Positions 1 to 26,944 of a stretch of 64,000 nt of DNA are shown here, in pieces; within the stretch, counting starts at the first letter, position 1; each line of letters starts with the position of its first letter. The stretch covers positions 1 through 64,000 of IMG/VR virus record IMGVR_UViG_3300005613_000006. The stretch is one strand, 5' to 3'. The notes beneath the pieces are model-generated. The model had not been told where the DNA came from and ran no database searches. It saw only the letters and a list, made by a program, of their open reading frames with translations. The translations under genes were made by a program, and so were the position numbers. Source of the stretch: a virus.

Positions 1-366
1 GGACCCTGTGGCGACCGCCTCCATCCTTCGATAGAACGCCCGACTAGCGGGATGGTGTGGGAACACCTTAATGGTCTTGGTATTGACACGCCGACACGCA
101 AGGCGAAAGAGGCCGCGACCCAGGCCGCGATTCCGATACCTGATGTTGATGAACACGTAGAACGTAGTGGTGGTACGATTCTCTCGCAAGAGTGCCCATC
201 CTACTATGCTACCGCTGTCCAACGCCAGCAGTATCTTATCCCTGTCCTCACGGTAGTCGAGATAGTCTTCCCGAATGTAGTCAAACCCACGCCAACTCAG
301 CGACATTAGCTGCCGCTTTTGGTGGGTACTCAGCTTTCGCTTCGTGGTTGTTCTGTAGCTTATCAC
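1..366 (-). CDS. GNAT-family acetyltransferase (runs off the window edge; absent from the ORF track)
   Basis: Manual translation ...IVGWALLRENRTTTTFYVFINIRYRNRGLGRGLFRL...HPASRAFYRRM contains acetyl-CoA motif A (RxRGxG) and the C-terminal AxxFYxR-like motif. Start is GTG 366 or ATG 306. Confidence 0.75.
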   Translation of the reverse strand, partial: MISYRTTTKRKLSTHQKRQLMSLSWRGFDYIREDYLDYREDRDKILLALDSGSIVGWALLRENRTTTTFYVFINIRYRNRGLGRGLFRLACRRVNTKTIKVFPHHPASRAFYRRMEAVATGS

Positions 367-5965: not shown

Positions 5966-6076
5966 TGAGACACCCATCCGTGCCCCCTCTTCTGGGGCCG
6001 CCGCCTCTTCCCCTCTTCTGGTGTTGCCTATACCCCATTATAGCACGGTGGCCGAACGTGTCAAGGTGTTTTGTCG

Positions 6077-6154
6077 TAAGTCCTTTGGTAGTAAGGGTTT
6101 AGGGCGTGCGGGGCGAGCCCCGGCTGCCGTAAGTCCTTTGCTGTTCACTACTTA
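6077..6154. repeat. paired-palindrome element #1
   Basis: TAAGTCCTT-N7-AAGGGTTTA, 28-bp GC hairpin spacer, TAAGTCCTT-N7-CACTACTTA. Confidence 0.9.
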
Positions 6155-6315
6155 CGTCGATTTCACTGCGTAGTGAACACGCCGGTTTGAGTGAACACCA
6201 ATAAACAAAGCCCCCATTTCTGGGGGCTAAGCCTAACCTTCGTTTTGACTCAGAAGGCCGAGTATAATCCCGACACACACAACCAGGAGGACGAGGATGT
6301 AACCCGCCATACGGG

Positions 6316-7062
6316 CTATACCGCTTGCGTCACGCACACGGCGTCGAACAGGCCGTGCAGCTTTTGCGTGCGGGTGGGTAACTCTGCCAGCGAACTACCC
6401 TTGAGGGTTTCGGTGAAGGCGTTGAACAGCCGCCAACCGTTCTTTCCCTTGAACTCGGGATGATTGGGAGCGTGCCACTGTTCCAGCACCTTGGGAACCC
6501 GCGTTGCGTTAATGGCCCTGCCGCGAAGGGCACGGCACACAATGTCGTGAGCCTGGGCATCCACCAGTTCGGTTTCCTTGTAGGCGTTGATGCGGGCATC
6601 CTGGGCGGTTCGCATATCGACCAAGCGACCGATGGCCTTTTGTACCAAGCCGGGAAGGTCGCGGTTGATGAAACGGGTATGACGACGACCCACAACTACC
6701 TCGGACGAAAACGCGAGGTTGTCGCAAACGAACACGCCAGAACCCAAGCAGATGCCAGCCGGGATGCTTTTGTCGTGCGAGTTACGCAAGCCGAAAACCA
6801 GGGAGTAGTCTTCGTGTTGGGCCTCACCGTTCTCGACCTGAAAGAGGCCGAAGTAACGCAAACCGTCACGATAGATGGCATGCGATTCGTTCACAACACG
6901 CAAGCCGTAGCCCGGCAGTAATTCTCGCAACAGGTCAATCAGCTTGGTGTGGGGGATGGGGCACCAACTCTGGGTGGGTTCCGGTGTTTCGATTCCAATG
7001 AGGGCACTTGCCTCAATCAGACGCGAACGCCCGGTGTCCAAACACAAATTCAAACTTCTCAT
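6316..7062 (-). CDS. DUF932/DUF945-family phage/plasmid protein
   Basis: GLRNSHDKS...GSGVFVCDNLAF and WRLFNAFTE signature; strong RBS and own promoter. Confidence 0.8.
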   Translation of the reverse strand: MRSLNLCLDTGRSRLIEASALIGIETPEPTQSWCPIPHTKLIDLLRELLPGYGLRVVNESHAIYRDGLRYFGLFQVENGEAQHEDYSLVFGLRNSHDKSIPAGICLGSGVFVCDNLAFSSEVVVGRRHTRFINRDLPGLVQKAIGRLVDMRTAQDARINAYKETELVDAQAHDIVCRALRGRAINATRVPKVLEQWHAPNHPEFKGKNGWRLFNAFTETLKGSSLAELPTRTQKLHGLFDAVCVTQAV

Positions 7063-7121
7063 GTCTCAAACTCCTCAAAAAAAACGAAAGGTTAGTTGGT
7101 TGATGCTTTCATTATAGCATA

Positions 7122-7331
7122 TCAGTCGAGATTGTCAAGGGCCTTTGCACAAGGTTCGCAAAGATTTGCTTCCTTGACGGTTTCCCTACCCCTCCCGAGA
7201 ACTATCGTCTTTGGGCCGTACTTGCCCTCCACCACCTTGGTGTAGGTCTTATCACGGGTCTGGATAACCCGCTTGTTTTGGGGGGTGCCATTGGGGGCTG
7301 GCTTATTGCAGCCGTCGCAGATAAAACTCAT
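7122..7331 (-). CDS. small zinc-finger protein
   Basis: CDGC...CEPC; GAGG RBS; own promoter. Confidence 0.65.
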   Translation of the reverse strand: MSFICDGCNKPAPNGTPQNKRVIQTRDKTYTKVVEGKYGPKTIVLGRGRETVKEANLCEPCAKALDNLD

Positions 7332-7472
7332 GGTCGCCTCGTAAGTTAGGATTCAGTTGGTCTACTGTAAGTATAACATAAGAATTGAAAATGTCAAGGA
7401 ACTCCGCACCAGCTATTTTGTATCCGGCTGGACCCTCTTGTTACGTCGGCCACTACTAGCGGCGAACGCCTA

Positions 7473-7546
7473 GCATACCCCCAAGGAATCGAACCCTGCC
7501 ACAGTGGGTTGGAACCACCGTCGCCACCTTGGAACATTGGGGTATG
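7473..7546 (-). tRNA. tRNA-Trp(CCA), atypical D-arm
   Basis: GGTGG-TTCCAAC-CCACT; CAGGG-TTCGATT-CCTTG; acceptor CATACCC/GGGTATG. Confidence 0.8.
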
Positions 7547-7566
7547 TCGGCCCTTGCGGGCCACGC

Positions 7567-7869
7567 TCAGTCGGCCTTGTCGGCGGCGGCTTGAGCCTTC
7601 AACGACGCTGCAATGGCGGCGTAGTCGTTCTTCTGTCGGCCACCCTTGGGTGCGACCTTCGGCTTGAGCAACTGCATGTCGGTGTTTTCCAGGCCCTTGC
7701 GGTACTGTCGCTCACGGCTGGCAAAGTTGCCTTCCTTGAGCCCCATACCTTCGCGAATCTCGCGTCGGGTCTTTCCGGCACGGCAGCCTGCATTGAACTG
7801 CAAGCAGAAGTCGCCAGCACTGATGGTTTCGGTCTTTTCCTTGGTCGCGGTTGCTTTTTCGTCGGCCAT
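7567..7869 (-). CDS. small basic, possibly DNA-binding protein
   Basis: GGAGAG RBS, K/R/A-rich, HTH-like KTRREIREGMGL. Confidence 0.6.
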   Translation of the reverse strand: MADEKATATKEKTETISAGDFCLQFNAGCRAGKTRREIREGMGLKEGNFASRERQYRKGLENTDMQLLKPKVAPKGGRQKNDYAAIAASLKAQAAADKAD

Positions 7870-8002
7870 GTGTGGCTCTCCTATAAAAGCGGATAACGGT
7901 GGTACAGCCTACACTGGCTGTTTCTTTCCCTTATTATAGCACACTTTCCTGATTTGTCAACCATTTTTCTCGCGGCTTTATTAGGATAGTTTTGCTGATA
8001 CA

Positions 8003-8050
8003 AAAAAGAGGTAGGCAACGTGACTAGTCGCGCCGTGTTGCCTACCCCTC
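8003..8050 (-). terminator. intrinsic terminator
   Basis: GGTAGGCAAC...GTTGCCTACC followed by T6 on the minus strand. Confidence 0.65.
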
Positions 8051-8348
8051 ACTTTCGCGGCCCAGAGGCTTGCTTTCCTTGTCGGGAGTGGCGGCTGCTT
8101 GGACTGGCTAAGTGGCTCAGAGCAAGATGATTTGCGACACGATAACCTCACCCTCAACAGGGAAGCCATCGACCAACACGACATACCCCGTAATGAGGGT
8201 TTGGATGTTGGTGTAGGAGTCGTCAATCAACAGTTGGAAGTCGATAATCTCAATCATCATTCTGTTTTCGGTTTGTGGTTTGTTCCCTTCAATACTCCAA
8301 TTATAGCATACCAATCGAATAAGTCAATCGTTTTCTAAGGAATAGTCG

Positions 8349-8398
8349 TAAGTGCTGTTGTGCCAACAACTTACGTCACGCGGGGCTGCAAGGGTTTA
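8349..8398. repeat. paired-palindrome element #2 (internally deleted)
   Basis: Full left palindrome, half spacer, then only AAGGGTTTA; the terminal TTA is the stop of the glycosylase gene. Confidence 0.8.
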
Positions 8399-8965
8399 GT
8401 GCGAGCTATATTTCTTCCACAAGTACAGGTCGAAATCCGCCACACTCACACCATCCGGCAGGAATCGCATGAATTCATCAGCGAGTTCCTTATACCTCTT
8501 GGCACTAGTGGGGGTGGACATCGGTGCATCAACCCCACAATCCCGTAGGAAATGTAGAATGTGAGTATCCAGAATAGGGTAGTCATACCCCTCCCTGCTG
8601 TGGGTCAGAAAGAAATGGGCCGTTTTGTGGCTAACTCCCTTTATCCCCATCAAATCCTCGAACGAACACACAAGAAGGTCGAGGTTGGCAAGGGCAGCAC
8701 TGCGGAGAAAATCCGCCTTCTGATTGTGCGGCGTAATACCACAGCTATGAAGCAACGCGGCGAACTGTCCTATTCCCCTATGTCGGCAATACTTGTTGAT
8801 TGCAGCGAGGTAGTGACGTGGCACCCGTAGCTTCTTGAGTAGCTTGTCAACAGCGGGGGCGATTCTCTTGGCTTGCTTGTTGGCTACACAGATTGAGAAA
8901 ATCAGAAACTCTTCCAACTCCCTCCCATCTCTTTTGTAGTTGGTAATCTTGTTGGGGTCTATCAT
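8396..8965 (-). CDS. HhH-GPD DNA glycosylase/AP lyase (Ogg-like)
   Basis: HhH motif LMGIKGVSHKTAHFFL with catalytic K, PILDTHI, Y.E, DLYLW; start MIDPN at 8965. Confidence 0.8.
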   Translation of the reverse strand: MIDPNKITNYKRDGRELEEFLIFSICVANKQAKRIAPAVDKLLKKLRVPRHYLAAINKYCRHRGIGQFAALLHSCGITPHNQKADFLRSAALANLDLLVCSFEDLMGIKGVSHKTAHFFLTHSREGYDYPILDTHILHFLRDCGVDAPMSTPTSAKRYKELADEFMRFLPDGVSVADFDLYLWKKYSSH

Positions 8966-9202
8966 GCTAATATCTCCACTACTTTCATTTCTTCTGCTAA
9001 TATCCAAGTTCCACCCTGAGATTGTGGGCGATTGAACTTCCGAACCCGTCGCAGTTGTACACGCGCCCACACTCTGCCCTTCTCAGACAGGTGGGGTGCT
9101 ACCTTCTCAATGGTGGCGTGCCAACCGGGGCGATGTGCGTACCCCTTGGTGGGGTGGTCTTCTGCGGGATACCATACCCCAACTCGATACGCAATTGCCC
9201 GC

Positions 9203-9988
9203 TTACGCCCTCGCCCCCCTCTCCTTACGGGAGTAGCCCCCCTCAGACTTCTTAATCTTCTGCCACGCGGAGGCAGCGTCCGACCCCTTCGGTTGGGTGC
9301 CATGCAGCAGAAGGGCGAAGTTCCCCCCAACAGTGGCAGCGTGACTATCATCGTGGTCAATCGGCATAGCCGTTTCATCACGCGAAAAAACTACTTTTGC
9401 GGTACGGATTTCCAGCTTCTTAATCAGGTGGTCATACTTCCCCCCAGCCGAACCAGTCAGCAGGAAGTTGTGAAGCAACACCCCCTTATAGAGGAATGAG
9501 AGGTCATACCCATCGAGGTACAGCCGATGGACAAAGGGTAGACTCTTGGTGTATGCGTAGAACAACACATCGGGACGTTGCTCAGCGGCACGCACAGCCC
9601 CCAATAGGTAGGTATACTTGAAGAAGTCCCCCGCAACGTGGTAGCGAAGCACCTTACACTTGGGGGGTAGACCGGCGAGGATAAGGTCGCAGACTTGCGA
9701 GGGGCCGCGACATGCCTTGATGCACTCCCAGTTCCGCAGACGGTTCTTATACACCGCCGGAAAGAGTACCTCTTGAGAGGCAGAGAAACACCTGAATTGG
9801 GTATATCGTCCGTCCTTGACAGACCGCTTGCCAGCGGCATCGAGTACCACCTTAGAGTGACAGTCCTTCGCACCGGGGCACGTATACCCCGAAAGGAGGT
9901 CGAGACTATAAATCTTCTCCCCCTTAACCAGACCTAGCACCTTACCCAAAGTCTCTATCTTCGCATTAGCTTCCGAGAAGTACAGCAT
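9203..9988 (-). CDS. phage 'gene product 88'-like Cys-cluster protein
   Basis: TCPGAKDC...CFS, LRYHVAGDF, FYAYTK; GGAGG RBS before ATG 9988. Confidence 0.7.
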   Translation of the reverse strand: MLYFSEANAKIETLGKVLGLVKGEKIYSLDLLSGYTCPGAKDCHSKVVLDAAGKRSVKDGRYTQFRCFSASQEVLFPAVYKNRLRNWECIKACRGPSQVCDLILAGLPPKCKVLRYHVAGDFFKYTYLLGAVRAAEQRPDVLFYAYTKSLPFVHRLYLDGYDLSFLYKGVLLHNFLLTGSAGGKYDHLIKKLEIRTAKVVFSRDETAMPIDHDDSHAATVGGNFALLLHGTQPKGSDAASAWQKIKKSEGGYSRKERGARA

Positions 9989-10078
9989 ACCACCCTCCGG
10001 TGTCATAGTGTAGTTGGTTGATGCCCTTATTATACCACCCCAGCGGGGAAAGTCAAGCCCTGTCAAGTCATTTTGTCC

Positions 10079-10156
10079 TAAGTCGTTGCTGTGTAACGGG
10101 TTACGTCGCGCGGGGCTAGCCCCGCTCGCCCTAAGTGCTTACGCCACAACGAGTTA
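10079..10156. repeat. paired-palindrome element #3
   Basis: TAAGTCGTT-N7-AACGGGTTA / 28 bp / TAAGTGCTT-N7-AACGAGTTA; the last TTA is the stop of ORF 10154-10375. Confidence 0.9.
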
Positions 10157-10375
10157 CGTCAAGTTCTGGATGGTCGAGGGTCCAAGTCTCCACAGAAACT
10201 CTTGCAGCCCAATCTCATCATCCATGCTACGGGGCGGCACTGGCAGTTCTCCCATCATGCAGCGATGTCGCCACCCATCAGGGTCGATAATTCTGACGCC
10301 AACAAGTTCCGCCCACTTGTGAGCAGTGTACTCATTATCAGCGTGGTCATACAGCCAATCCAGTAAGTTGTTCAC
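10154..10375 (-). CDS. hypothetical protein
   Basis: IIDPDGWR motif; ends in element #3. Confidence 0.6.
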   Translation of the reverse strand: MNNLLDWLYDHADNEYTAHKWAELVGVRIIDPDGWRHRCMMGELPVPPRSMDDEIGLQEFLWRLGPSTIQNLT

Positions 10376-10575
10376 GGGCGTAACCTTTTGGGCAACTGAT
10401 TGTAGGGAATGTGTAGCGTGTGGCTATCGGGGTGATTCACCTTGCGAACCACAACGGCGGTTGGCGTAATGCGAAGTACCTTTACCTTGAAACGCTGGTA
10501 AAGAAACAGAGCCCGCTGTTCCCTACGGCGTCTAGCGCTTTCAAGAACTATGCGGGCTACTCGCGAGGCTCATAG

Positions 10576-10646
10576 AGGGAAAGGTGGGAATCGAACTCAC
10601 AACCTATTGGTTAACGGCCAATCGCTTGCCTTTCAGCTTCACTCCC
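10576..10646 (-). tRNA. tRNA-Asn(GTT), C33 variant
   Basis: ATTGG-CCGTTAA-CCAAT; GTGAG-TTCGATT-CCCAC. Confidence 0.85.
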
Positions 10647-10980
10647 TTGCGTGTGTTTCTCTGTGGCAATTTGCACACATTAAATCACATTTGTCGAGTT
10701 CTTTTTGAATTTTCTCCCAACTGATTGTCTTGCCTGAGATTTGGAAGTCTTTGCCGTCTGGTTCTCGGTGGTGAAACTCTAGGGCATCAATACACTTATC
10801 GTATCCACAACAAGAGCATTCGCCGCCCAAGTAGTCAATCGCTCTTTGTTTCGTTCGTCGTCGCCAGTTTGTGACGTGTTCAACGCGGCACTTCTTGCAA
10901 CGCCAGCGGTTTGTTTTGCCCTCTGCCACAAATGTGGTTTTACCATGCTTCGGGCATTTTCTCTGTGTGGTTTTTCTCAT
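10639..10980 (-). CDS. HNH homing endonuclease
   Basis: CSCCGY...ALEFHH...KCDLMCANCHRE; TGA stop lies inside tRNA-Asn. Confidence 0.85.
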   Translation of the reverse strand: MRKTTQRKCPKHGKTTFVAEGKTNRWRCKKCRVEHVTNWRRRTKQRAIDYLGGECSCCGYDKCIDALEFHHREPDGKDFQISGKTISWEKIQKELDKCDLMCANCHRETHARE

Positions 10981-11121
10981 ATTCTATTATATACCAAAAC
11001 GGTGTAATTGTATGAGTTACACCACAACATTGTGGAAAGTAGCCCCTTTGGTCCTATCAACCTTCATTACTTCAATTAAGTGCTGTTGGAAAAAGGATTG
11101 TAGGAGCAAGGTGCTACTAAG

Positions 11122-11190
11122 TGGCAGGGGAGGGAGTCGCACCCCCAAGGCTCGGCTTATGGGGCCGTGCTGGAAACTGTTCCCCCTGCG
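11122..11190 (-). tRNA. tRNA-Met(CAT)-like, initiator-type 1:72 mismatch, short D-arm, C33
   Basis: CGCAGGG/CCCTGCC-A; CGGC-CCCATAA-GCCG; T-loop TGCGACT. Confidence 0.7.
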
Positions 11191-11750
11191 TTGTTTATTT
11201 CTTCGGCTTCGGCTTCTTGGGCCTCGGCTTGGGCTTGCGTTTAATCGCTAGGCCCCCTGTCTCCACGAATACGGCTGCTTCGTCGCCGCGTTCGGTCTTC
11301 AATGTTCGTCCGTTGGCCAGCTTGATTTCGATGGTCACTTATTCACCTTCTTGAGTTCGTCGGTGTGGATTAGTGTTCCGTACTCAGCTTCCAATTCTCT
11401 GGCTTTCAATCCCAGCCACATTACAATCGCGAATACCTGATTGCCGTTGTTCTGGAACTTCCTGATTTGTACTCTCTTACCGCGATGGGCACCGCTACCC
11501 CAGTCGAGGCTCACGGTACACTTGTCGCCAATCTTGAAGCCTTTTGTGTCCATATCCCTATTATACACCACTTTCCGGCTTTGTCAACTCATCTTCCTGC
11601 AAAAGCGGGCACTTTGTTTGAGCGTCGGCCACATCCTCAATCTCAGGATTGTCCCTACATTCCACCTTCATCCGGCTTGTTGCCAGAGTATCCACCGGCC
11701 TATGCTCATTCGCTGCACACTTCCAACACATAGCAAACATAATTCGCCTC

Positions 11751-11806
11751 AGATTTTCGCTGACTATTACCCATTGCCAGACCGAGCGGGCTGGATGGGG
11801 TGAGAC
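11751..11806 (-). repeat. 56-nt conserved non-coding motif, copy C
   Basis: GTCTCACCCCATCCAGCCCGCTCGGTCTGGCAATGGGTAATAGTCAGCGAAAATCT, downstream of promoter 11912-11939. Confidence 0.8.
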
Positions 11807-11960
11807 AAAGGCCAGGGCCTACATTGTACGGGTTTTTCGTTTAAGACTCGGGAACCGCAATAGACCGAGCCCCCTGTAAGGGTTCTAGCCAAACCTTTGC
11901 CTCACTCCCCTATTATAGCACACCGCCCCGAATTGTCAAGCGGGATTCTCTGAATCCTCC

Positions 11961-12038
11961 TAAGTGCTTACGCTGCAACACTTTATGCCCGGCGGGGCCA
12001 GCCCCGCTCGTCGTAAGTCCTTATGTGGCAACCACTTA
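11961..12038. repeat. paired-palindrome element #4
   Basis: 53-bp period; the last TTA is the stop of ORF 12036-12284. Confidence 0.9.
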
Positions 12039-12284
12039 TATCACTTTCGGGTCATCTTCATAATCCTCGGGGTATTCGTTGGCCATGTGTAGCAGTTGAA
12101 TGATGGTACCCAGCCCAATCTCTTGTTCTTCTGGGTGGTCTGCGTGTAGTGCCTTGACGATGAAAATATCAGCGGGTAGAGGTTCCCCCTCGGCAACTTT
12201 CTCCCTTACAAGCACCATGCAGGGCTCATACGGGTTGCCACCATCACGGTATTCGGTATCCTCTCCCCACTGAATTTCATACAT
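12036..12284 (-). CDS. acidic hypothetical protein
   Basis: GGAG RBS; ends in element #4. Confidence 0.6.
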   Translation of the reverse strand: MYEIQWGEDTEYRDGGNPYEPCMVLVREKVAEGEPLPADIFIVKALHADHPEEQEIGLGTIIQLLHMANEYPEDYEDDPKVI

Positions 12285-12289
12285 GGTCG

Positions 12290-12691
12290 CTACTCCACGA
12301 TTATGATGGGCTTGGCGTCATCGAGGAACCTAACACCACGGAGGTAGAGAACCACCCTCGCAAGCCAGCCAAGCTTCATCACGTCTTCCGCAATGCCTTC
12401 CTCATAGAAGGACCGGAAGATACCATCAGGGCACAACCCAGTAATGAGAAACTGAGTACGGTCGATAAACCTTGCACGTTCGGATTCCGGCAGAATCGGA
12501 TGCTTGTGCGTGTCACGCACGGAGGTCACCTTGCATAGGCGATTCTTTTCCCCATGCTCAGGCTGGTTGTAGACGAACCGAATCACGTCGCCGGGGCGAA
12601 CCATTCGGAGTCGAGTCGGGCCAGTGAAGACCGGCAGGAACAGGGAAGCGGCAATCAACAGGACAGCCACGACTAACGAAATCTCAAACAT
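12290..12691 (-). CDS. membrane-anchored hypothetical protein
   Basis: AGGAG RBS, own promoter, N-terminal TM helix. Confidence 0.65.
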   Translation of the reverse strand: MFEISLVVAVLLIAASLFLPVFTGPTRLRMVRPGDVIRFVYNQPEHGEKNRLCKVTSVRDTHKHPILPESERARFIDRTQFLITGLCPDGIFRSFYEEGIAEDVMKLGWLARVVLYLRGVRFLDDAKPIIIVE

Positions 12692-12742
12692 GTGCTTTTC
12701 TCCTTCTTGTGTAGTATAGCACGAAAAACGTATTTGTCAACC

Positions 12743-13408
12743 CTACGCGGGTTGCAATTCTTTCTTTACAGCTTTTTTGTAGCACGTTCGCACATTCCCG
12801 TACTCATCTTCTAGACTTGTCCACCCGTCGAAGACGTTACCTATAACGGGGGAGCCGTCACACCCACATTGAACTATGTCGCCGTTGGGTCTGATGATAT
12901 GGTCTTCACACATGCAGAACTTGGCCGACTCGACAATATCCTCGTAATCCTCGCCCTCGTAGTAGGTTTCCAATGCTCGGCCAGTGGCACTGGGTTCTTG
13001 CGTGTCGGTGGTGTTGCGAATCCCAACGGGTTGCCCCCACTGAGAGTTGCCAAGTGCCTCAAACGCACTGACTACTTCGGGGTCAATCTCTTCGTGGTAT
13101 TCATCTTGCGACAACTGAGCCGAAATGGCTTTTTTGTTCGCCAGCTTGGCAAGCATAAGAGCCCGCTTTTTGTTTTTGCCGTTGGTGATAACCAAAGGCT
13201 CGTCAACCGTTGCGACTACCTCAAGCAAGATACGCTCGAAATCGGGATGCACGGTGGGTTCACCACCCCCAATGGCGGCGTAATCGTCTAGACAATCAAG
13301 AGCGGCCAGGAACGTTTTGCGACTCATATCCTCGCCCTTGCCGGGCTCACAGGAAAAGCAGCAGTGGTCACAACGCATATTGCAACGGGTGGTGATTTGG
13401 AGGTACAT
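12743..13408 (-). CDS. radical SAM protein
   Basis: ITTRCNMRCDHC, GGGEPT, ITNG, C-terminal C...PNGDIVQC...IGNV (SPASM/twitch-like). Confidence 0.9.
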   Translation of the reverse strand: MYLQITTRCNMRCDHCCFSCEPGKGEDMSRKTFLAALDCLDDYAAIGGGEPTVHPDFERILLEVVATVDEPLVITNGKNKKRALMLAKLANKKAISAQLSQDEYHEEIDPEVVSAFEALGNSQWGQPVGIRNTTDTQEPSATGRALETYYEGEDYEDIVESAKFCMCEDHIIRPNGDIVQCGCDGSPVIGNVFDGWTSLEDEYGNVRTCYKKAVKKELQPA

Positions 13409-13504
13409 GGTTTCTCTCTCGCTGTGTTGTTCTCTCAATAACTAGAGTATAACACAAGGTTTGAAAAACACAAGGGGAAAAATCAGAAAAATCTCGAAAA
13501 GACG

Positions 13505-13582
13505 TAACCCCTTACCAGCAAAGCAGTTAGGGCGAGCGGGGCTGGCCCCCGGCGTTGTAACCCTATATGCTGTAAGGGTTTA
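13505..13582. repeat. paired-palindrome element #5
   Basis: TAACCCCTT-N7-AAGCAGTTA / 28 bp / TAACCCTAT-N7-AAGGGTTTA. Confidence 0.9.
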
Positions 13583-13658
13583 GGGAAATTTTTGGATTAT
13601 GTCGTCACCGTCAAGATACTTTTGGTGTATAATATAGTAGGGAAAAATTGGCTCCAAA

Positions 13659-14156
13659 ATGAGGTTTATTATGCCACTTACAGCAGTTCCAAGTAAAGAC
13701 AAAATCTCAACACATTTTTATTGTGGGTATTGTGCTGAGTATCTACCCCGTTCCGAATTTTCACCCAACTGTAATAAACAGAGTTGCCGAAAACACAATT
13801 CTTTATATGACAGAATACGGGCCGACAATCTAAAGAAACGAGTGATTGAATATATGGGAGGCAAATGTTGCAGGTGTGGTTATCAGCAATGTATAGCCGC
13901 TCTTGAACTTCATCACCCCAATCCTGTAATTAAAGAAATGGGTTGGGATAAACTCAGAAAGAGAACTTTTGAGTTCATTATCCAACACATTGAAGAACAG
14001 GGTTTGGTTTTGATATGTGCTAATTGTCATCGAGAGGAACACTACGAAGAAGCTACTCTTCCTCAATGGGTGCCCCGAAAATCTGCTCTTGACACTTTGC
14101 ACAAAGGCCAGAAATCCGATACTCCTTTTCATGGAGGGGAGTGCGGAACTCTGTAG
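13659..14156 (+). CDS. HNH homing endonuclease
   Basis: CCRCGY...ALELHH...LICANCHRE; AT-rich; TGGTGTATAATA at 13623-13634. Confidence 0.85.
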   Translation: MRFIMPLTAVPSKDKISTHFYCGYCAEYLPRSEFSPNCNKQSCRKHNSLYDRIRADNLKKRVIEYMGGKCCRCGYQQCIAALELHHPNPVIKEMGWDKLRKRTFEFIIQHIEEQGLVLICANCHREEHYEEATLPQWVPRKSALDTLHKGQKSDTPFHGGECGTL

Positions 14157-14289
14157 CTGGACCACCGCAGCCGATGGGCGGGGGCACGCACATGTTGGCC
14201 CTAATCTGGGCCTCGCGGTCACCCCCGGTCAGGGCATTGATGAGGCCGTTGATTGCCGGTGCTTTCTTCGTGGGTTCTGCCATTACCAA
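14053..14289 (-). CDS. small zinc-finger protein
   Basis: C..GC...EYRISGLCAKCQ..IF; GGAGG RBS. Confidence 0.65.
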   Translation of the reverse strand: MVMAEPTKKAPAINGLINALTGGDREAQIRANMCVPPPIGCGGPATEFRTPLHEKEYRISGLCAKCQEQIFGAPIEEE

Positions 14290-14603
14290 TCCTCCCCATA
14301 ATCGTCAAACTGTCCGTGGTCCCAATCGTCACCACCCATGTAGTCTTGCCACTCGTCATATTCGGACGGCTGACCGTCATCCTCATAAAGGTCGTCGTAC
14401 TCGCCTTCGTCGTACTCGTCGTTCTGCCAGTCGTCGCCCTCGGGGTCGTCGTCACCGAAAACATCCGTAAAGGAAACGGGTTCCTCGGGGTGCTTCTCTT
14501 CCTCGGGGCCGCAGAATAGGCAATCCTCAATAATCGCACCGTTTTCGTCGGCGGAAAAGACTTGACCGCTGCCATCGCAGTTGGGGCACTGATTGTCGGA
14601 CAT
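14283..14603 (-). CDS. zinc-finger protein with very acidic C-terminus
   Basis: CPNCDGSG...CLFC then a D/E/W/Y-rich tail; AGGAG RBS; own promoter. Confidence 0.7.
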   Translation of the reverse strand: MSDNQCPNCDGSGQVFSADENGAIIEDCLFCGPEEEKHPEEPVSFTDVFGDDDPEGDDWQNDEYDEGEYDDLYEDDGQPSEYDEWQDYMGGDDWDHGQFDDYGEDW

Positions 14604-14704
14604 GATAAAACTCCTGTGATTTGGGGCTCTCGTTTCAACACCTGTATTATAGCATGGTGACACGGCACGTCAAGCACAAAATCCAAAAATTCCCAAAGTT
14701 TCCC

Positions 14705-14782
14705 TAAGTGCTTACTGCGTAAGCCTTTACGTCGCGCGGGGCGAGCCCCCGTCGTCGTAACCCCTTATGCCACAAGGGTTTA
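14705..14782. repeat. paired-palindrome element #6
   Basis: 53-bp period; the last TTA is the stop of ORF 14780-14995. Confidence 0.9.
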
Positions 14783-14995
14783 GATGATACCCGCGAGCAT
14801 CAACGCACTCATCACGGTGCCCTTGTTACACTCTTCACACCACCCGTGGCCCTGGTCAGGCTCAACCTCAGTGGTGTACGTACATCCAGGCGTCATGCAG
14901 ATGCCAGGGCTAACGCTGTCGAACGTCGCGTGTTCAAGCATTTCCATCACTTCCATGCCCTCGATGTCTGCCAACAAATCCAGTTTCTCACACAT
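14780..14995 (-). CDS. small zinc-finger protein
   Basis: ICMTPGC...VEPD...WCEEC. Confidence 0.7.
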   Translation of the reverse strand: MCEKLDLLADIEGMEVMEMLEHATFDSVSPGICMTPGCTYTTEVEPDQGHGWCEECNKGTVMSALMLAGII

Positions 14996-15324
14996 AGCTC
15001 ATTCTCCCTTGAGTGTTGCCACCACAGTCCAGCACCGTTCCACATAGTACGCTGCTTGCTCTGCGGCTTCTGCTTCGTTCTCACCCTCAACCCAGTACCG
15101 TGTACCGTCTGCAACGTGTTCCAGTATAATGTACCACATAGTTTCCTCGCCGCCCGAGCGGGCTGGTTTAGCTATTCCAAGTATCGTTGCACACGTCCAC
15201 AATGGCCGCGATAAACACAACGCCGACAAAAAGCATGAGGCCAATCAATACTATTGGGTTACTTACCATGTTTGTATTATAACACCACGATTCAAAAGGT
15301 CAAGAGAAAAAGTAGGAAAAGCCC

Positions 15325-15389
15325 TAAGTCATTGCTGCGTAAGAGTTTATGTCGAGCGTCACCCTAAGTCCTTTTGTGGTAAGGCTTTA
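15325..15389. repeat. paired-palindrome element #7 (spacer hairpin deleted, 40-bp period)
   Basis: TAAGTCATT-N7-AAGAGTTTA / 15 bp / TAAGTCCTT-N7-AAGGCTTTA. Confidence 0.85.
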
Positions 15390-15721
15390 GGCCGTGTTCC
15401 TTTTCGAGGCAAGCCATGTGGTACACCTTGACATCGCAATCAGGGGTAGTACCTTTGGGTAGGCCACCTTTGGTGGGCAGACCACAGAGGGGGCATATCT
15501 CGCGAGGGTCACAATCCGGCATTTTTTTTGATTCTCTCATAATCAATCTGCATTTTCCAACAACAAAGGAAACCAACAACCCACCCTAATAGAAACGCAA
15601 ATCCAGCTAACATGACTAGTCCTTTCTACTGTATAAAAATCCCCCCCGACTACTGTATATCAGTACCATCGGGGGGAACCGAGAGAGTATGGTGGGCGTA
15701 CTCGGTTTTTGTCCCTTGCCC

Positions 15722-15797
15722 GTGTCTAGCGGGTGTCCTGGCCATTAGACGACACTACGCCGGGGAGTCGAACCCCGAATTTCCCGCATTACTCAAT
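15722..15797 (-). ncRNA. circularly permuted tRNA-like RNA (YrlA/Y-RNA-like)
   Basis: GCGGG-AAATT-[CGGGG TTCGACT CCCCG]-GCGTAGTGTC-[GTC TAATGGCCAG GAC]-A-CCCGC: T-arm precedes D-arm, closed by GCGGG/CCCGC. Confidence 0.65.
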
Positions 15798-16218
15798 GTG
15801 TTTCAATCATTTCGGTGGGGCTTGCACCACCCCAAAAGTCGGCCCACTCATCGTCAGACTTATCTACCACGTTGGCGGCATCGGCTTCCACCCCACCGTG
15901 GGGGTCGGTCAACGCTCGGGGGTCCAGAGCATAGCCACGCTTGGCCCACTCATCTACCCTCTTTTGCCGGGCCAGATTATCCTCCCTACGTTTTGCCTCA
16001 TCCTTCTTACGGGTGGCGTTGGACAACCCGGCGAGGGTCTTTTCGGTCCAAGGCCGAATATCGTAAGCGGTGGCCCGACTATTGGGGGTGAACGGCTCCC
16101 CGGTCTCGGGGTCTATCACCTTATCCAATTCGATGGTAAACAGGGCAAATTTGGCAACTTCGGGGCTCAAGTCCTCGGGGCAACCAGTAAACGCGGCAAA
16201 CTCGGAATTGCTAAACAT
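15793..16218 (-). CDS. hypothetical protein
   Basis: own promoter 16251-16278, purine-rich RBS. Confidence 0.65.
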   Translation of the reverse strand: MFSNSEFAAFTGCPEDLSPEVAKFALFTIELDKVIDPETGEPFTPNSRATAYDIRPWTEKTLAGLSNATRKKDEAKRREDNLARQKRVDEWAKRGYALDPRALTDPHGGVEADAANVVDKSDDEWADFWGGASPTEMIETH

Positions 16219-16551
16219 GATTTTCTCTCTTTTCTCTCTCGACTAGTTCTATTCTACCATACTACACGGAATTGTCAAGCGGTTTGTTCTATTTTTTTTC
16301 CGCTGTTTTGCAGGCAGTGCAGACCTTGTAGACCACACCATTGGGGGCTCGACGCTCCACCTGACGACCACCACACACTTTGCACATACCACACCCCCTA
16401 GAGTTGGGATACGCCGAAACCGGCGAGGATTGCCAAAACTGCCGAAACTACCAAAGCTACCATAAATTCGATGACCATGATTTTTTCCTTTCTACCTATA
16501 TTATATACAGCAGGCCGGAAAAATCAATAGTTGAGATTCAGTGTCAAGTTG

Positions 16552-16576
16552 TAAGTCGTTGCCACCACAGTAGTTA
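16552..16576. repeat. single palindrome unit (#8)
   Basis: TAAGTCGTT-N7-CAGTAGTTA. Confidence 0.7.
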
Positions 16577-16696
16577 CGACGAAAAATTTTTTCAAAGTCG
16601 AGTTACTGGACACTTTAGTGAGCAAGAATAACTACCTTTTTATGTTGAGAGTTTGTGTTTTTCCTATTTCTTTGTGTGTGTTTTCTGTTTGTCGAG

Positions 16697-16770
16697 TGAC
16701 CCGTATGGGAGTCGAACCCATATTTCGGGGTTGAAGGCCCCGCGAATTAACCATTATTCAGGAACGGGCC
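16697..16770 (-). tRNA. tRNA-Glu(TTC), C33 variant
   Basis: CGGGG-CCTTCAA-CCCCG; ATGGG-TTCGACT-CCCAT; GGCCCGT/ACGGGTC. Confidence 0.85.
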
Positions 16771-16780
16771 GAAAGCCAAA

Positions 16781-16999
16781 CCCCCCGAGCTTCACTTTGT
16801 ACTTCACACGGGGGGCCACTCCAATCTCTAAGTGGGTACTTACCATCAGGAACTAGCCTGGGCAGCAGGCCCTCTTTCGAGGTATGGAACGTAAGGCTAT
16901 GGTAGTAAATAGAACGAGCTTAACCCTTCACCCCGGTTTGTTAGCCGGGAGCCTACCGCCTCACGACAGTATGGGGACTCGAACCCCACGTTCTATGTA
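16781..16999 (-). ncRNA. candidate structured RNA containing a permuted tRNA-like module
   Basis: No ORF; T-arm TGGGG-TTCGAGT-CCCCA, GNRA hairpins, closing stem ATAGAACG/CGTTCTAT; lies between promoter 17087-17114 and tRNA-Glu. Confidence 0.6.
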
Positions 17000-17403
17000 G
17001 TATGTAGGGGTCTACCCTCCTGCAAATTATCCTCATTGTTTGTGGCCGTCTGCCAGCTACTCACCGGCTGCCACGTCCATTCTCATATTATACCGTATGA
17101 GGCCGGTTTGTCAAGGGGAAAAACAAAGTGAATCGCCGCAGCGTTGTCAACTTGTGTTTTTCTTTCCTTTCTACTGTAATTATACACAACAGAAGCCAAA
17201 AAACAATACAACCCCCCAGATTACCTATGGCTCCGTCGCCGTAACTCCTTTCCCTACAATCACTTACATCAATCAACTATTTTCTACAATCCGAACTGGA
17301 CACCTTGGAAATGTGAATCTGCTCCCACTCTGCGGTGGCCCTTCCTGTGGGGGCGGGTATAGCAGGCTGGATTGGGTAGTACACCAGAGGCTACGCCTCG
17401 TCG

Positions 17404-17481
17404 TAAGTCCTTTGATACCAACACCTTACGTCACGCGGGGCGGGCCGGGCTCGACGTAACCTCTTACGTGGCAAGGGTTTA
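17404..17481. repeat. paired-palindrome element #9
   Basis: 53-bp period; the last TTA is the stop of ORF 17479-17661. Confidence 0.9.
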
Positions 17482-17661
17482 GGTGACCGAGCCACCTTCC
17501 TTCTCTACCACCCGACAGAAGAGATACCACTGGCCCATGTCGGTTATCTCTTGGGCTACCTCTTGACGGGTAACCTCATCCATGAGGTAGAGGTAGGCAG
17601 CACGGGCTACCGTGCGGCTGACGTTGTGGGTAGTGGCGAGGTGTGTGATAGTCTCTCTCAT
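17479..17661 (-). CDS. hypothetical protein
   Basis: AGGAG RBS before ATG 17661 (MRETITH). Confidence 0.55.
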   Translation of the reverse strand: MRETITHLATTHNVSRTVARAAYLYLMDEVTRQEVAQEITDMGQWYLFCRVVEKEGGSVT

Positions 17662-17671
17662 GGTGGTACTC

Positions 17672-18061
17672 CTATGTGGTGGTGCCGTATAGCTTGGCCT
17701 TGCGAGCTTCAATCTTGGCTTGCCGCTTGGCTTGCTCAGCCTGAAAAGCATACACTCCAAACTTCCCATTAGTGAGGACAACTTGCCCATCCAAATCGGC
17801 GTAGTTCTGCACACGCTTGTGCTTACCACTCACGGTGTACTTCTCTTGTGGATTGCGGCCATAACCGTATCGACATGCTTCTGCGAAGGGGGTATGCTTA
17901 CGGGTGAAGAACACATACACGCCAGCGGGGCACTCGAATGTGATGCACACGAATCGCTCGGGGTACTTCAGATTGACGTGCCAGTTCTCCCTCTCAAAGG
18001 GGGTGATGCTGACAATGCGAGCGTCGGTGATTGTGATGGCGGGTTTTGACATGGTGTACAT
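17672..18061 (-). CDS. hypothetical protein
   Basis: AGGA RBS; in operon. Confidence 0.6.
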   Translation of the reverse strand: MYTMSKPAITITDARIVSITPFERENWHVNLKYPERFVCITFECPAGVYVFFTRKHTPFAEACRYGYGRNPQEKYTVSGKHKRVQNYADLDGQVVLTNGKFGVYAFQAEQAKRQAKIEARKAKLYGTTT

Positions 18062-18246
18062 TCCTATATCTGGTTGATTCCAAAGATGGCGAGGATGGCC
18101 AGGATGGCGGCGACGATGAGGGCGATGAGCAGTTCAAAGAATAACATGGTTTTTCTCTCCCTTGTGTGTATGCCTCTATTATAGCCCCCTTTCCCCATAC
18201 GTCAATAGCAAAACCATTTATTTTCTCGGAATTTCCAAAATAGTTG

Positions 18247-18324
18247 TAAGTGCTTACGCTGTAACACTTTACGTCGCGCGGGGCGTCCCCCCCCGGTCGT
18301 AAGTCGTTATCCTGTAACGGTTTA
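18247..18324. repeat. paired-palindrome element #10
   Basis: 53-bp period; stop of ORF 18327-18572 is 2 bp away. Confidence 0.9.
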
Positions 18325-18326
18325 CG

Positions 18327-18572
18327 TCAATCCCATCCTTTGCACCCACAGTAGAATGAGTCCGTCGAATAGGTGGGTCGCTCCCGAAAGAAGGGGAGGC
18401 TCTTGTTGCTCTCCCTCTCTTCCCCACAATAGGCACACGATGCAAACCGTTCGGGGAAGGGGAGGGGCAACTGATTGGGGGCCGCTCTACGGGGGTAGTT
18501 TGGCTCATCCAATGGGTGAGGTTGGCCAGGGCCGGTCTGTTTAGCACAATGCTGGGAGGGTGGCATCTTCAT
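18327..18572 (-). CDS. small zinc-finger protein
   Basis: CAYCG...LPFF...DSFYCGCKGWD. Confidence 0.65.
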   Translation of the reverse strand: MKMPPSQHCAKQTGPGQPHPLDEPNYPRRAAPNQLPLPFPERFASCAYCGEERESNKSLPFFRERPTYSTDSFYCGCKGWD

Positions 18573-19588
18573 ACCTCAAGAGGTAGTCATGGGCAAGGGC
18601 CTGCAACCAGTTGGCCTCGACACACTCATCGTGACCCCTACGGCAGAGCCATACGCAGGCACCCGTGCGATACGATTCGTAGGTCTTGCGGAAGTGCAAG
18701 AGGTATTCGTGCCACTGGGCATCTGTCCACTTGTAAGGCTTGGAAGGTTTCGACATTCTCTCTCTCCTACCCACAGAGGGGGCAATGGGGACCAGCATAC
18801 TTACTACCACACTTGGGGCAGCGGGTATACCGCTTTTCAACTAGCTCGGGATGATTTTCTTCGATGATACGGAAGGCCATACAACGGAGGTCTTCGCAGT
18901 TCTCTGCGTGGTTATTACCTTCGGGGTATTGGCGAACCACTTCCTCGGTTGAGATTTTGGTGATTGCACTGGTCTCAGTGTCGTATTGAAGGTCGGCAAG
19001 TCCAAAGCTGTTAGTCATAGTTAATTCTCTCTTTCGTTACTTCTATTGTAGCATATTCTCAAGGTGTGTCAAGAGGCAAAGACGAATTTTCCGTAATCTT
19101 TTTCGATTTTTCTTTCGGGCTGGCCTACCTCGAACCCCTCCGCTTGGAGTACCTCGCAGAAGTACATCCACTCAGCCATACTGGCCTCACACTCCCCACT
19201 AATGGGGTTCTTGCGAACCAACGCCATAACTACGTCGGCAACGGTATCAATCCCCTCTGTGTAGCGGTATACCATAACGGCGATTTTGCGGCTTACGCCG
19301 TAGTGGTCCATGATATTGTTGACGGTTGCGAACATGTTAGGATGCCTTTCTGTATTCTTGGCAGTTGACCGGCTTCCGGTCCTCTTGGGGGGTTCCGAGT
19401 TGAGCGAAACGACGGTTGCGATACCAGCCGTACCACTTCTGGCGGGGTTCGCCCCGCTCACCGTTTCGTCGTTTTCTTTTTTCGCCATCAACCATTTTTC
19501 TCTCTCATCTACCTTAATTATACGCAACGGATTGTAAAAGTCAAGGGCTGGCGTTTCAGAATCTTTCTTTTTTTTTCATTTCGTGTCA

Positions 19589-19613
19589 TAAGTGCATACT
19601 ATCACACGGGTTA
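19589..19613. repeat. single degenerate palindrome unit (#11)
   Basis: TAAGTGCAT-N7-CACGGGTTA upstream of promoter 19517-19544. Confidence 0.55.
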
Positions 19614-21077: not shown

Positions 21078-21794
21078 CTAGTCCGACGATGAACAGCGTG
21101 AAAATGATTCCCGCAATGATTTGACCCATTTCCCTAACCTCCCTACTATTTTCTGACCTATGGTCATGTCTTTCTCAACCAGCGGAACTAGCAGCATAAG
21201 GCTGGCCATTTCTAACTCTTCGATGCCCTCGGCGTCCAGAAAGCCTTCCGGCTTCCAATACCTAGTGTTACCTACCAGGGTAACGCTTTCAGTTTCATTG
21301 CCGTCGTCATCCAGACTCGTACTCATCGAGACCGGATAGAAGCCCGCCTTGCGAATTTGCTCCATCCACATTCGCTTCTCAATAATATCCCCATTCCCCA
21401 GACAGTAGTAGTCTTCATCGTGTTCCGAAGGCTCACTTATTCCGAGGCCAGCGCGGGAGCAGTCGCCCCCCAGTTCATCCAAAATGAACCTCTCCATCTT
21501 CCACATGAACCGGCCTGTGGGGTAGATGCCGTATTCATCGGGGTTGTCGAGCATCTCACTCATCAACTCACAGACAATACCGCGAATTCTTTCATCAGCA
21601 ATCTCTGTGTAGTCGGGCTCGGAGCCAACCATGATGCACTTCTCATCCTTACACTTTTCGTCGTAAGTCTCACCGTCGTAAACCTGGATAAACTCAGGGT
21701 CTACAAATGTCTCTGTGCATATCCACTCAAGCACCTTATCTCGGGTCAGTTCGATAATAGGGTCAGCGAAGACCACAATTCGTAGTTCATTCAT
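21078..21794 (-). CDS. acidic hypothetical protein
   Basis: 238 aa, GAGG RBS, ATGA coupling. Confidence 0.7.
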   Translation of the reverse strand: MNELRIVVFADPIIELTRDKVLEWICTETFVDPEFIQVYDGETYDEKCKDEKCIMVGSEPDYTEIADERIRGIVCELMSEMLDNPDEYGIYPTGRFMWKMERFILDELGGDCSRAGLGISEPSEHDEDYYCLGNGDIIEKRMWMEQIRKAGFYPVSMSTSLDDDGNETESVTLVGNTRYWKPEGFLDAEGIEELEMASLMLLVPLVEKDMTIGQKIVGRLGKWVKSLRESFSRCSSSD

Positions 21795-26465: not shown

Positions 26466-26944
26466 TTCGCGACACGCGAGAGAAAGAAAAGAAAGGCTGG
26501 CAATGGCGCAAGTCCATGTACTGTGAAGGTACGGTTGACGGCACCATGAAGACAGGAGACTACACGTTGGAAGGATATGAAGGAGTCCTTACCATTGAAC
26601 GTAAGGGCAGAATCTCAGAGTTCGCCAAGAACATCAATGAGGCTAGGTTTGGTAAGGAATTGGAGCGCATGACGCAGTTCAAACACGCTTACGTAATCCT
26701 TGAGTTTACGATGCGTGACCTATTGAACTATCCAGTGGGCTCAGGAATACCGCGACATAAGTGGCGCTACTTGAAATTCAAGGGGCCGTTCATTTTGAAG
26801 AAGCTGACAGAGATGATGAGGGACTACCCAACAATTCATTTTGTGTTGGCTGGAGATGCGGGAAAAGAGACAGCATCAAGTATTTTCAAACGCATCGTGG
26901 AGAGTGAACGTGCCAACTCTGATTCAACCGGAGGCGAAAGCTAA
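26447..26944 (+). CDS. ERCC4/XPF-domain nuclease
   Basis: IIRDTREK...TGDY...IERKG. Confidence 0.85.
   Translation: MSKYTIIRDTREKEKKGWQWRKSMYCEGTVDGTMKTGDYTLEGYEGVLTIERKGRISEFAKNINEARFGKELERMTQFKHAYVILEFTMRDLLNYPVGSGIPRHKWRYLKFKGPFILKKLTEMMRDYPTIHFVLAGDAGKETASSIFKRIVESERANSDSTGGES

Follow-up and report, generated by a model that had tools for sequence, protein, structure and literature searches.

The window analysed here comprises the first 64 kb of the single 172,878-bp viral record IMGVR_UViG_3300005613_000006. The record has a GC content of 49%, and its completeness is 100% according to CheckV. Minus-strand genes extend across 1-22 kb, as judged from GC skew and open reading frames (ORFs). 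The late genes are on the plus strand and include a terminase gene with an intein, a capsid protein gene and a gene for a 3289-aa tape measure protein. These genes mark the virus as a long-tailed phage. The early minus-strand region is divided into cassettes of accessory genes, among them those for DUF932, an Ogg-like glycosylase, GP88, a radical S-adenosylmethionine (SAM) enzyme and an HNH endonuclease. The subject of this report is a 78-bp element that recurs between these cassettes. It consists of two 25-bp dyads, TAA-N4-TT-N7-AA-N4-TTA, which flank a GC-rich core.

The dyad pattern has 15 exact matches in the window, compared with 0.06 expected from shuffled sequences (the largest value in any shuffle was 1). 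All exact matches lie within 6.0-18.3 kb, and no exact match was found elsewhere in the whole 172,878-bp genome. At seven loci two units are paired exactly 53 bp apart, start to start (Table 1), and the core GCGGGGC..GCCCC is present between the units in six of these seven pairs. The paired copies agree at just 3-10 of the 15 variable positions, with the exception of the pair 11961/18247. Since most variable positions differ between copies, the copies are not recent duplicates. At five loci the outermost TTA of the element is also the end of a minus-strand ORF, and a further ORF end is found at 18327.

A preliminary description of this DNA, made from the letters alone, had already reported much of this arrangement. 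The dispersed dyad of the early region proved to be real, the same seven paired starts around a GC palindrome were recovered, and the two loci described as internally deleted, 8349 and 15325, correspond to a 50-bp deleted copy and to a pair at 40 bp that lacks the core. The stop codons said to be held by the element at five loci, and to lie 2 bp away at 18327, agree with the minus-strand ORF ends. ORF ends and the promoter scan also bear out the proposed order of gene stop, element, promoter and next gene. The absence of elements from the 40-kb late region extends to the rest of the genome for the exact motif, and the view that the copies are selected sites rather than recent duplications fits their low agreement at variable positions. 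The two single units that had been listed, 16552 and 19589, are present but weak, while an exact single unit at 17242-17266 had been missed. The N4 and N7 positions, which had been thought free to vary, instead follow a half-site consensus with letters that never occur.

Table 1. Elements, promoters and terminator in the early region of the window. Promoter distances run from the element to the -35 box.
Feature	Position	Strand	Description
Paired element	6077..6154	-	Unit 6077-6101 exact, unit 6130-6154 with 1 mismatch; GC hairpin core; -35 box starts 12 bp past element
Sigma70-type promoter	6037..6064	-	TTGACA-16-TATAAT with TG, 12/12 matches; downstream of element 6077..6154
Hairpin-plus-T-run terminator	6209..6228	-	Sole canonical terminator on the minus strand of the region; between gene stop 6316 and element 6077..6154
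Internally deleted element, 50 bp	8349..8398	-	Last TTA is the stop of ORF 8396-9070; promoter 8327-8300, 21 bp past element
Paired element	10079..10156	-	Both units exact; contains stop of ORF 10154-10375; promoter 10056-10029, 22 bp past element
Paired element	11961..12038	-	Both units exact; contains stop of ORF 12036-12284; promoter 11939-11912 (12/12), 21 bp past element
Paired element	13505..13582	-	Second unit (13558) with 1 mismatch; weaker promoter TTGTGT-16-TATACT about 31 bp past element
Paired element	14705..14782	-	Both units exact; contains stop of ORF 14780-14995; promoter 14673-14646, 31 bp past element
Two exact units 40 bp apart, GC core deleted	15325..15389	-	Promoter 15303-15276, 21 bp past element
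Single unit, weak	16552..16576	-	1 mismatch; about 120 nt downstream of tRNA-Glu; promoter-like site 16527-16500
Single unit	17242..17266	-	Exact motif match
Paired element	17404..17481	-	Both units exact; contains stop of ORF 17479-17829; no promoter within next 140 nt
Paired element	18247..18324	-	Both units exact; stop of ORF 18327-18572 is 2 bp away; promoter 18205-18178, 41 bp past element
Single unit, weak	19589..19613	-	2 mismatches; promoter 19544-19517

The canonical terminator lies upstream of the first element in the direction of transcription, so that the element there belongs with the promoter and not with the gene end. Between the paired element 17404-17481 and the single unit 17242-17266 there are 137 nt (17267-17403, minus strand) with neither ORF nor promoter, a stretch that may encode a small RNA or be the remnant of a cassette.

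Several neighbouring features were recorded. The radical SAM enzyme and the Ogg/HhH (helix-hairpin-helix)-type glycosylase-like protein are encoded at 12743-13438 and 8396-9070, respectively, both on the minus strand, and may act in DNA modification or repair. A tRNA called by Rfam at 10576-10646 (minus strand, 50.1 bits) and unreported by ARAGORN lies inside an early cassette, as does a sub-threshold Tymo_tRNA-like match at 11109-11188 (minus strand, 32.7 bits against a gathering score of 40). In the late region, the 1130-aa ORF at the terminase position (26841-30233, plus strand) contains an intein with a LAGLIDADG domain. The tape measure ORF (44566-54435, plus strand) would imply an exceptionally long tail.

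The element family and its promoters

The strict paired pattern, with 20 fixed bases, was used as a query against IMG/VR, and the paired element was found in at least 120 stretches. Among the matches listed, many contigs are 100-240 kb long with a GC content of 34-48%, and as many as six copies occur within 6-12 kb. In each of four complete relatives (200-238 kb), 8-11 strict pairs are confined to one block of 15-18 kb, and the reversed-pattern control gave 0. In the five complete genomes the elements are limited to the early block. No description of the element was found in the literature, and no Rfam family matched any element.

For consensus and distance analysis, 145 IMG/VR copies were oriented by their promoters. 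The consensus reads, in blocks of flank, dyad, core, dyad and flank, gaCc / TAAa.CCTTg...c..AAGgACTTA / GGgC.Ag..gGGccgGCC...tT.GaCG / TAAGTcCTTAt....cAAcgACTTA / cGacaa, and is followed by an A/T-rich spacer. The half-site consensus is TAAGTCCTT(D), and T at position 4, A at position 5 and C at position 10 never occur. With its flanks the dyad is CG-TAAGTCCTT-N7-AAGGACTTA-CG. The TAA, TT, AA and TTA blocks are invariant across copies. Invariant blocks together with never-used letters form the pattern expected if a protein reads duplex DNA directly. In 44 of 112 family copies the ORF before the element terminates at element position -4 or +1.

Downstream of the element on the minus strand, after the A/T-rich spacer, lies a promoter of the form TTGAC-N16/17-(TG)TATAAT. 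Of the nine paired or truncated loci in the window, seven have a promoter that matches 11 or 12 of 12 consensus positions. The distances from element to -35 box in the window are 12, 21, 22, 21, 31, 31, 21 and 41 bp. A promoter scoring at least 10/12 was present within 150 bp of 123 of the 145 oriented copies, and the distances cluster at 20, 30-31, 41, 53 and 61-62 bp. The Rayleigh test gave p~1e-21 at a period of 10.5-11 bp, a value that is an upper bound on significance because the copies are related. Of 208 copies, 87 have a strict promoter on one side only, and none has one on both sides. In the shortest distance class the dyad abuts an UP-element-like GGATTTTTTAAAGA, and the longer classes gain 10-bp modules.

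With the 53-bp spacing of the units, both dyads and the promoter are predicted to lie on the same face of the helix. No other observation argues as strongly for a DNA-level partner of RNA polymerase as this phasing. It points to a DNA-level regulatory site, since neither an RNA 3'-end signal nor a recombination site would need such a register. In the promoter spacers of the IMG/VR relatives (L001-L120) a second protein site may lie inside the promoter; it is lacking in the promoters of the window.

Covariation, folding and cassette edges

Complementarity within units was under the shuffled level (z -3.4 to -5.5), that is, covariation was negative. Left and right units paired equally well within and between loci in the window (4.7 versus 4.8 of 15), and the family-wide z was -0.6. 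Real middles and real whole elements folded no better than chimeras. In RNA folds of the seven window copies the sole recurrent helix was the central GC hairpin, and z was -0.5 to -2.1. On these grounds models in which the dyad itself forms a hairpin, the left unit pairs with the right, or the middle pairs were rejected, apart from a weak signal in the inner half-sites and core. An intrinsic (Rho-independent) terminator was likewise rejected for the window copies: the hairpin is present but no T-run follows it directly, and the terminator scan called none of them. The lower-GC relatives have just TTT after the core.

Neither megablast nor tblastn against 50,697 GenBank phages found a close relative of this phage, and an IMG/VR protein-based search with ORF 21078-21794 found none either. 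Synteny was therefore testable only among the other members of the element-bearing clade. In related IMG/VR contigs, homology breakpoints fell within 25 bp of a unit at twice the expected rate, and gaps with a unit contained 1.25 breakpoints compared with 0.42 for plain gaps. When breakpoint positions were counted in 20-bp bins, upstream homology ended at -20..0 (13 cases) or 60..79 (16 cases) relative to the element, and downstream homology started at -20..19 in 28 cases, against a background of 3-4 per bin. The enrichment at the element edges is about 4-fold, although gene ends are natural breakpoints anyway. The contig pair L070/L106 shows insertions of 460-630 bp directly beside units. Given this pile-up at their edges, the elements appear to be cassette seams in related phages. 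The breakpoints occur at both edges and not at one crossover point, the distribution that homologous exchange across a 78-bp repeat common to both partners would leave.

The preliminary description had suggested an integron- or tyrosine-recombinase-like cassette system, and had named two checks: whether gene-content differences between related phages break at the elements, and whether a tyrosine recombinase is encoded in the rest of the genome. The breakpoints just described speak for the first. The second gave a negative result. In the complete 172,878-bp genome there were 0 matches to PF00589 (tyrosine recombinase), for which the control fired in 14/14 genomes, and 0 to PF00239 (serine recombinase) and PF01797 (Y1 transposase), for which the controls fired as expected. 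With no such enzyme, no covariation of the arms, promoters of their own in the cassettes and a helical phase lock to those promoters, the suggested system is not sustained, and the element is not a new recombination system.

Candidate binding proteins and host-side occurrences

No HU/IHF gene (PF00216) was found in the phage genome. A 166-aa protein with a helix-turn-helix (HTH) and an HNH domain is encoded at 143 kb of the genome (L282:1138-1638, minus strand), and the 113-aa HNH endonuclease of cassette gene 10639-10980 (minus strand) is 47% identical to its C-terminal part. Homologues were found at 15 element-bearing IMG/VR loci and in 4/4 complete relatives searched, often inside the element block. 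No other gene is as widely shared among element-bearing loci. Both proteins were rejected as readers of the dyad: they belong to an HNH homing-endonuclease family, not to a regulator family. Enzymes of this kind may contribute to the mobility of the cassettes. No small, conserved gene for a DNA-binding protein was seen to accompany the elements.

The exact consensus unit was found in at least 120 stretches of species genomes, against a chance estimate of about 9; intrinsic terminators inflate such counts. Among the matches listed, Planctomycetota and Spirochaetota dominate. Of the 24 exact units from Planctomycetota among these matches, 12 lie 1-8 nt past a tRNA or transfer-messenger RNA (tmRNA) gene. 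Like the phage units, they are flanked by CG, and most of them lack a T-run. A degenerate unit occurred in 26 of 300 sampled Planctomycetota genomes, compared with 4 for the reversed control. In the Thermoguttaceae the unit was present in 20/26 genomes, compared with 2/26 for the reversed control. One Thermoguttaceae metagenome-assembled genome (MAG), G005, contains 417 copies of the unit compared with 2 of the control. Many of these copies are accounted for by a second repeat at contig ends and by a repeat of about 190 bp that resembles a miniature inverted-repeat transposable element (MITE). The latter is bounded by terminal inverted repeats, AGCTCGACTTTTGCCATTTT / AAAATGGCAAAAGTCGAGCT, and contains two dyad units at a distance of 56-57 bp (for example L253-L262). 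No RAYT/Y1 transposase (PF01797) was found in G005. Phage-type pairs, with a gap of 24-36 bp, were essentially absent from 400 sampled Planctomycetota genomes.

The tRNA-adjacent host copies were also considered as ends of integrated elements. This was rejected, as housekeeping functions (PrmC, glyoxalase II, AcrB) are encoded next to them and no integrase was present. GDP-mannose dehydratase was uninformative as a clue to the host. On the MAG contigs L121, L149 and L161, long poly-G, poly-C or poly-A ends follow right after the motif and look like sequencing or assembly artefacts. The occurrence of the unit in Planctomycetota chromosomes, beside tRNA and tmRNA 3' ends and in a MITE-like repeat, points to a host DNA-binding protein. 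The results support a host-encoded reader and a Planctomycetota host for the phage, but prove neither.

Interpretation and relation to known systems

We propose that the element would be a composite regulatory junction between early cassettes, in which phased docking sites, an attenuating GC hairpin and a hot-spot of exchange are combined before the main early promoters. The probability of this reading is estimated at roughly 0.6. The two 25-bp dyads, five helical turns apart, would be candidate docking sites on double-stranded DNA for a protein that is probably a DNA-bending dimer and probably host-derived; its identity, and whether it activates or represses, can be put forward only as inference. 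A whole number of helical turns separates the dyads from the elements of the near-consensus sigma70-type early promoter downstream, namely its UP-like A/T tract and its -35 box, and the dyad nearer to the promoter is centred at about -60, -70, -80 or -90. The GC hairpin between them may attenuate read-through from the upstream cassette. Because the 78-bp sequence recurs at many junctions, it could also act as a recombination seam, at which general recombination would swap, gain and lose cassettes.

Several observations weigh against this proposal. Nine other strong promoters in the region have no element, and the promoters behind the elements already match the consensus, so that activation should be unnecessary. 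The inner half-sites and the core show weak positive covariation (z 3.5 and 2.3, respectively), which leaves room for a long central hairpin in RNA or single-stranded DNA, and the shuffle tests ignore the kinship of the copies. The Spirochaetota units are perfect hairpins, each with a T-run, placed immediately behind tRNA genes. The tRNA-adjacent host sites in general have the look of terminator hairpins and not of sites ahead of promoters, so that the host and phage motifs may not share a reader. The perfect palindromes of the host, being located at tRNA ends, could also be explained by a role in termination.

One alternative is that the 78 nt act purely as RNA, as a terminator, processing signal or stabilising structure at the 3' ends of early transcripts. 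The element begins at a stop codon in a large part of the family, its central GC hairpin recurs, the inner half-sites are complementary and covary, if weakly, and almost no canonical terminator exists elsewhere in the early region; the hairpins behind host tRNA and tmRNA genes, with their T-run in Spirochaetota, would fall into the same class. We nevertheless regard this explanation as improbable. Pairing of the dyads is not kept, the folds vary from copy to copy with modest z values, the window copies have no U-tract and no Rfam family is matched. At the first element a canonical terminator is already present upstream, and a 3'-end signal has no use for a helical register with the next promoter. 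About equally improbable, in our estimate, is that the dyads are operators rather than sites for a host protein, and that an early or middle regulator encoded by the phage uses them to time early transcription or to switch it off. Such operator arrays are frequent in phages, the restriction of the elements to the early block would suit them, and the phage encodes at least one HTH protein. This protein, however, is of the homing-endonuclease family, no small DNA-binding gene accompanies the elements, and the unit also exists in Planctomycetota chromosomes that have no phage-type pairs.

Two further explanations appear very unlikely. One is an integron attC-like or tyrosine-recombinase core site, by which a dedicated recombinase would move the cassettes, possibly on folded single strands. 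It draws on the palindrome-like form of the sites, whose first box often holds a stop codon, on the clustering of breakpoints at the element edges, and on an excess of A:C over G:U mispairs on the sense strand (188 and 190 versus 100 and 93 in the two units), so that the antisense strand would pair better. Besides the missing recombinases and the lack of covariation, the cassettes have their own promoters, which integron cassettes do not, helical phasing to a promoter has no role in recombination, and the breakpoints lie at both edges and not at a single crossover point. The other, of similarly small probability, is a selfish repeat of the repetitive extragenic palindrome (REP), REPIN or MITE type that has spread in the early region without function for the phage. 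A precedent is seen in the Thermoguttaceae genome, where a MITE-like repeat with inverted repeats at its ends and a pair of dyad units spaced 56-57 bp apart exists in hundreds of copies. The phage copies, in contrast, lack terminal inverted repeats, are geometrically exact although they differ at most of their variable positions, and always stand between a stop codon and a promoter, in phase. Moreover, their palindromes show no hairpin covariation of the kind required for REP or REPIN sequences, and no RAYT/Y1 transposase was found in the phage or in the high-copy host genome.

The regulatory junction may also be part of a wider picture, which we offer tentatively and with clearly less confidence. 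The dyad could be recognised by an unnamed DNA-bending protein of Planctomycetota, and in the host it would label tRNA and tmRNA gene ends and be carried inside MITEs. A large clade of long-tailed, uncultured phages would then have co-opted a doubled and phased form of this site for early promoters and cassette exchange.

The best of the analogies drawn in the preliminary description is that with the PeSL (promoter-early stem-loop) cassettes of the T4-type phages RB49 and phi1. In these, a stop codon and an A/T tract are combined with a poly-G/poly-C stem-loop and an early promoter that is strong and of sigma70 type (Arbiol et al. 2010, PMC2839356). PeSL copies shuffle cassettes by recombination between copies, and are dense in regions of small accessory early genes (PMC2839356). 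The present element shares with PeSL the upstream stop codon followed by an A/T-rich tract and a strong sigma70-type early promoter, and a G/C stem-loop within the module. Its copies are also dense in a block of accessory early genes, where they may act as seams at which cassettes are inserted, deleted and replaced. PeSL, however, has neither a pair of 25-bp dyads at a fixed 53 bp nor a quantised helical register to the -35 box, and its stem-loop is found at varied places inside or beside the promoter. The element-bearing phage, with its long tail and 3289-aa tape measure protein, is unrelated to T4. For PeSL, terminator activity and mini-circles have been shown.

Among DNA-binding proteins, IHF recognises the consensus WATCAA-N4-TTR and kinks DNA at points 9 bp apart. 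Its sites lie upstream of promoters such as lambda pL and Mu Pe, and IHF/HU-family sites are typical of insertion sequence ends, MITEs and REP or BIME elements. The dyad resembles such a site in that YAA-N4-TTA is invariant in both halves (C or T, never G, before AA), the TT/AA steps are 9 bp apart, and the site precedes the UP-element region at a position that is helically phased with the promoter. The host contexts of the unit also match those of IHF/HU sites. Unlike an IHF site, the dyad does not conserve the WAT positions, is two-fold symmetric and is always doubled, so that the resemblance is purely geometric. Fis sites at -71, -102 and -143 of rrnB P1 and class I CRP sites at -61.5, -71.5, -82.5 and -92.5 provide another comparison. 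These are dimer-type sites just upstream of the UP element at whole-helical-turn positions, a placement that the dyads share. The dyad sequence is unrelated to either consensus, and the promoters here already match the consensus. Integron cassettes have no promoters of their own and are transcribed from a shared one, and a tyrosine recombinase (IntI or Xer-like) is encoded together with their sites. The element resembles attC as an imperfect palindrome at a cassette boundary that can hold a stop codon. It differs in the absence of an integrase and of folded-strand covariation, in the promoters of its cassettes and in its rigid geometry, since the length of attC varies.

If this interpretation is true, one DNA word would link the firing and insulation of early genes in a large, unstudied clade of environmental phages of 150-240 kb, the sites at which these phages exchange accessory genes, and a chromosomal motif of Planctomycetota. 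How transcription is controlled in this phylum is almost unexplored. The motif could serve as a handle for fishing the binding protein and as a sequence-based clue to the host of more than 100 orphan phage contigs, and the element would be a ready-made insulated promoter part for a host group with few genetic tools.

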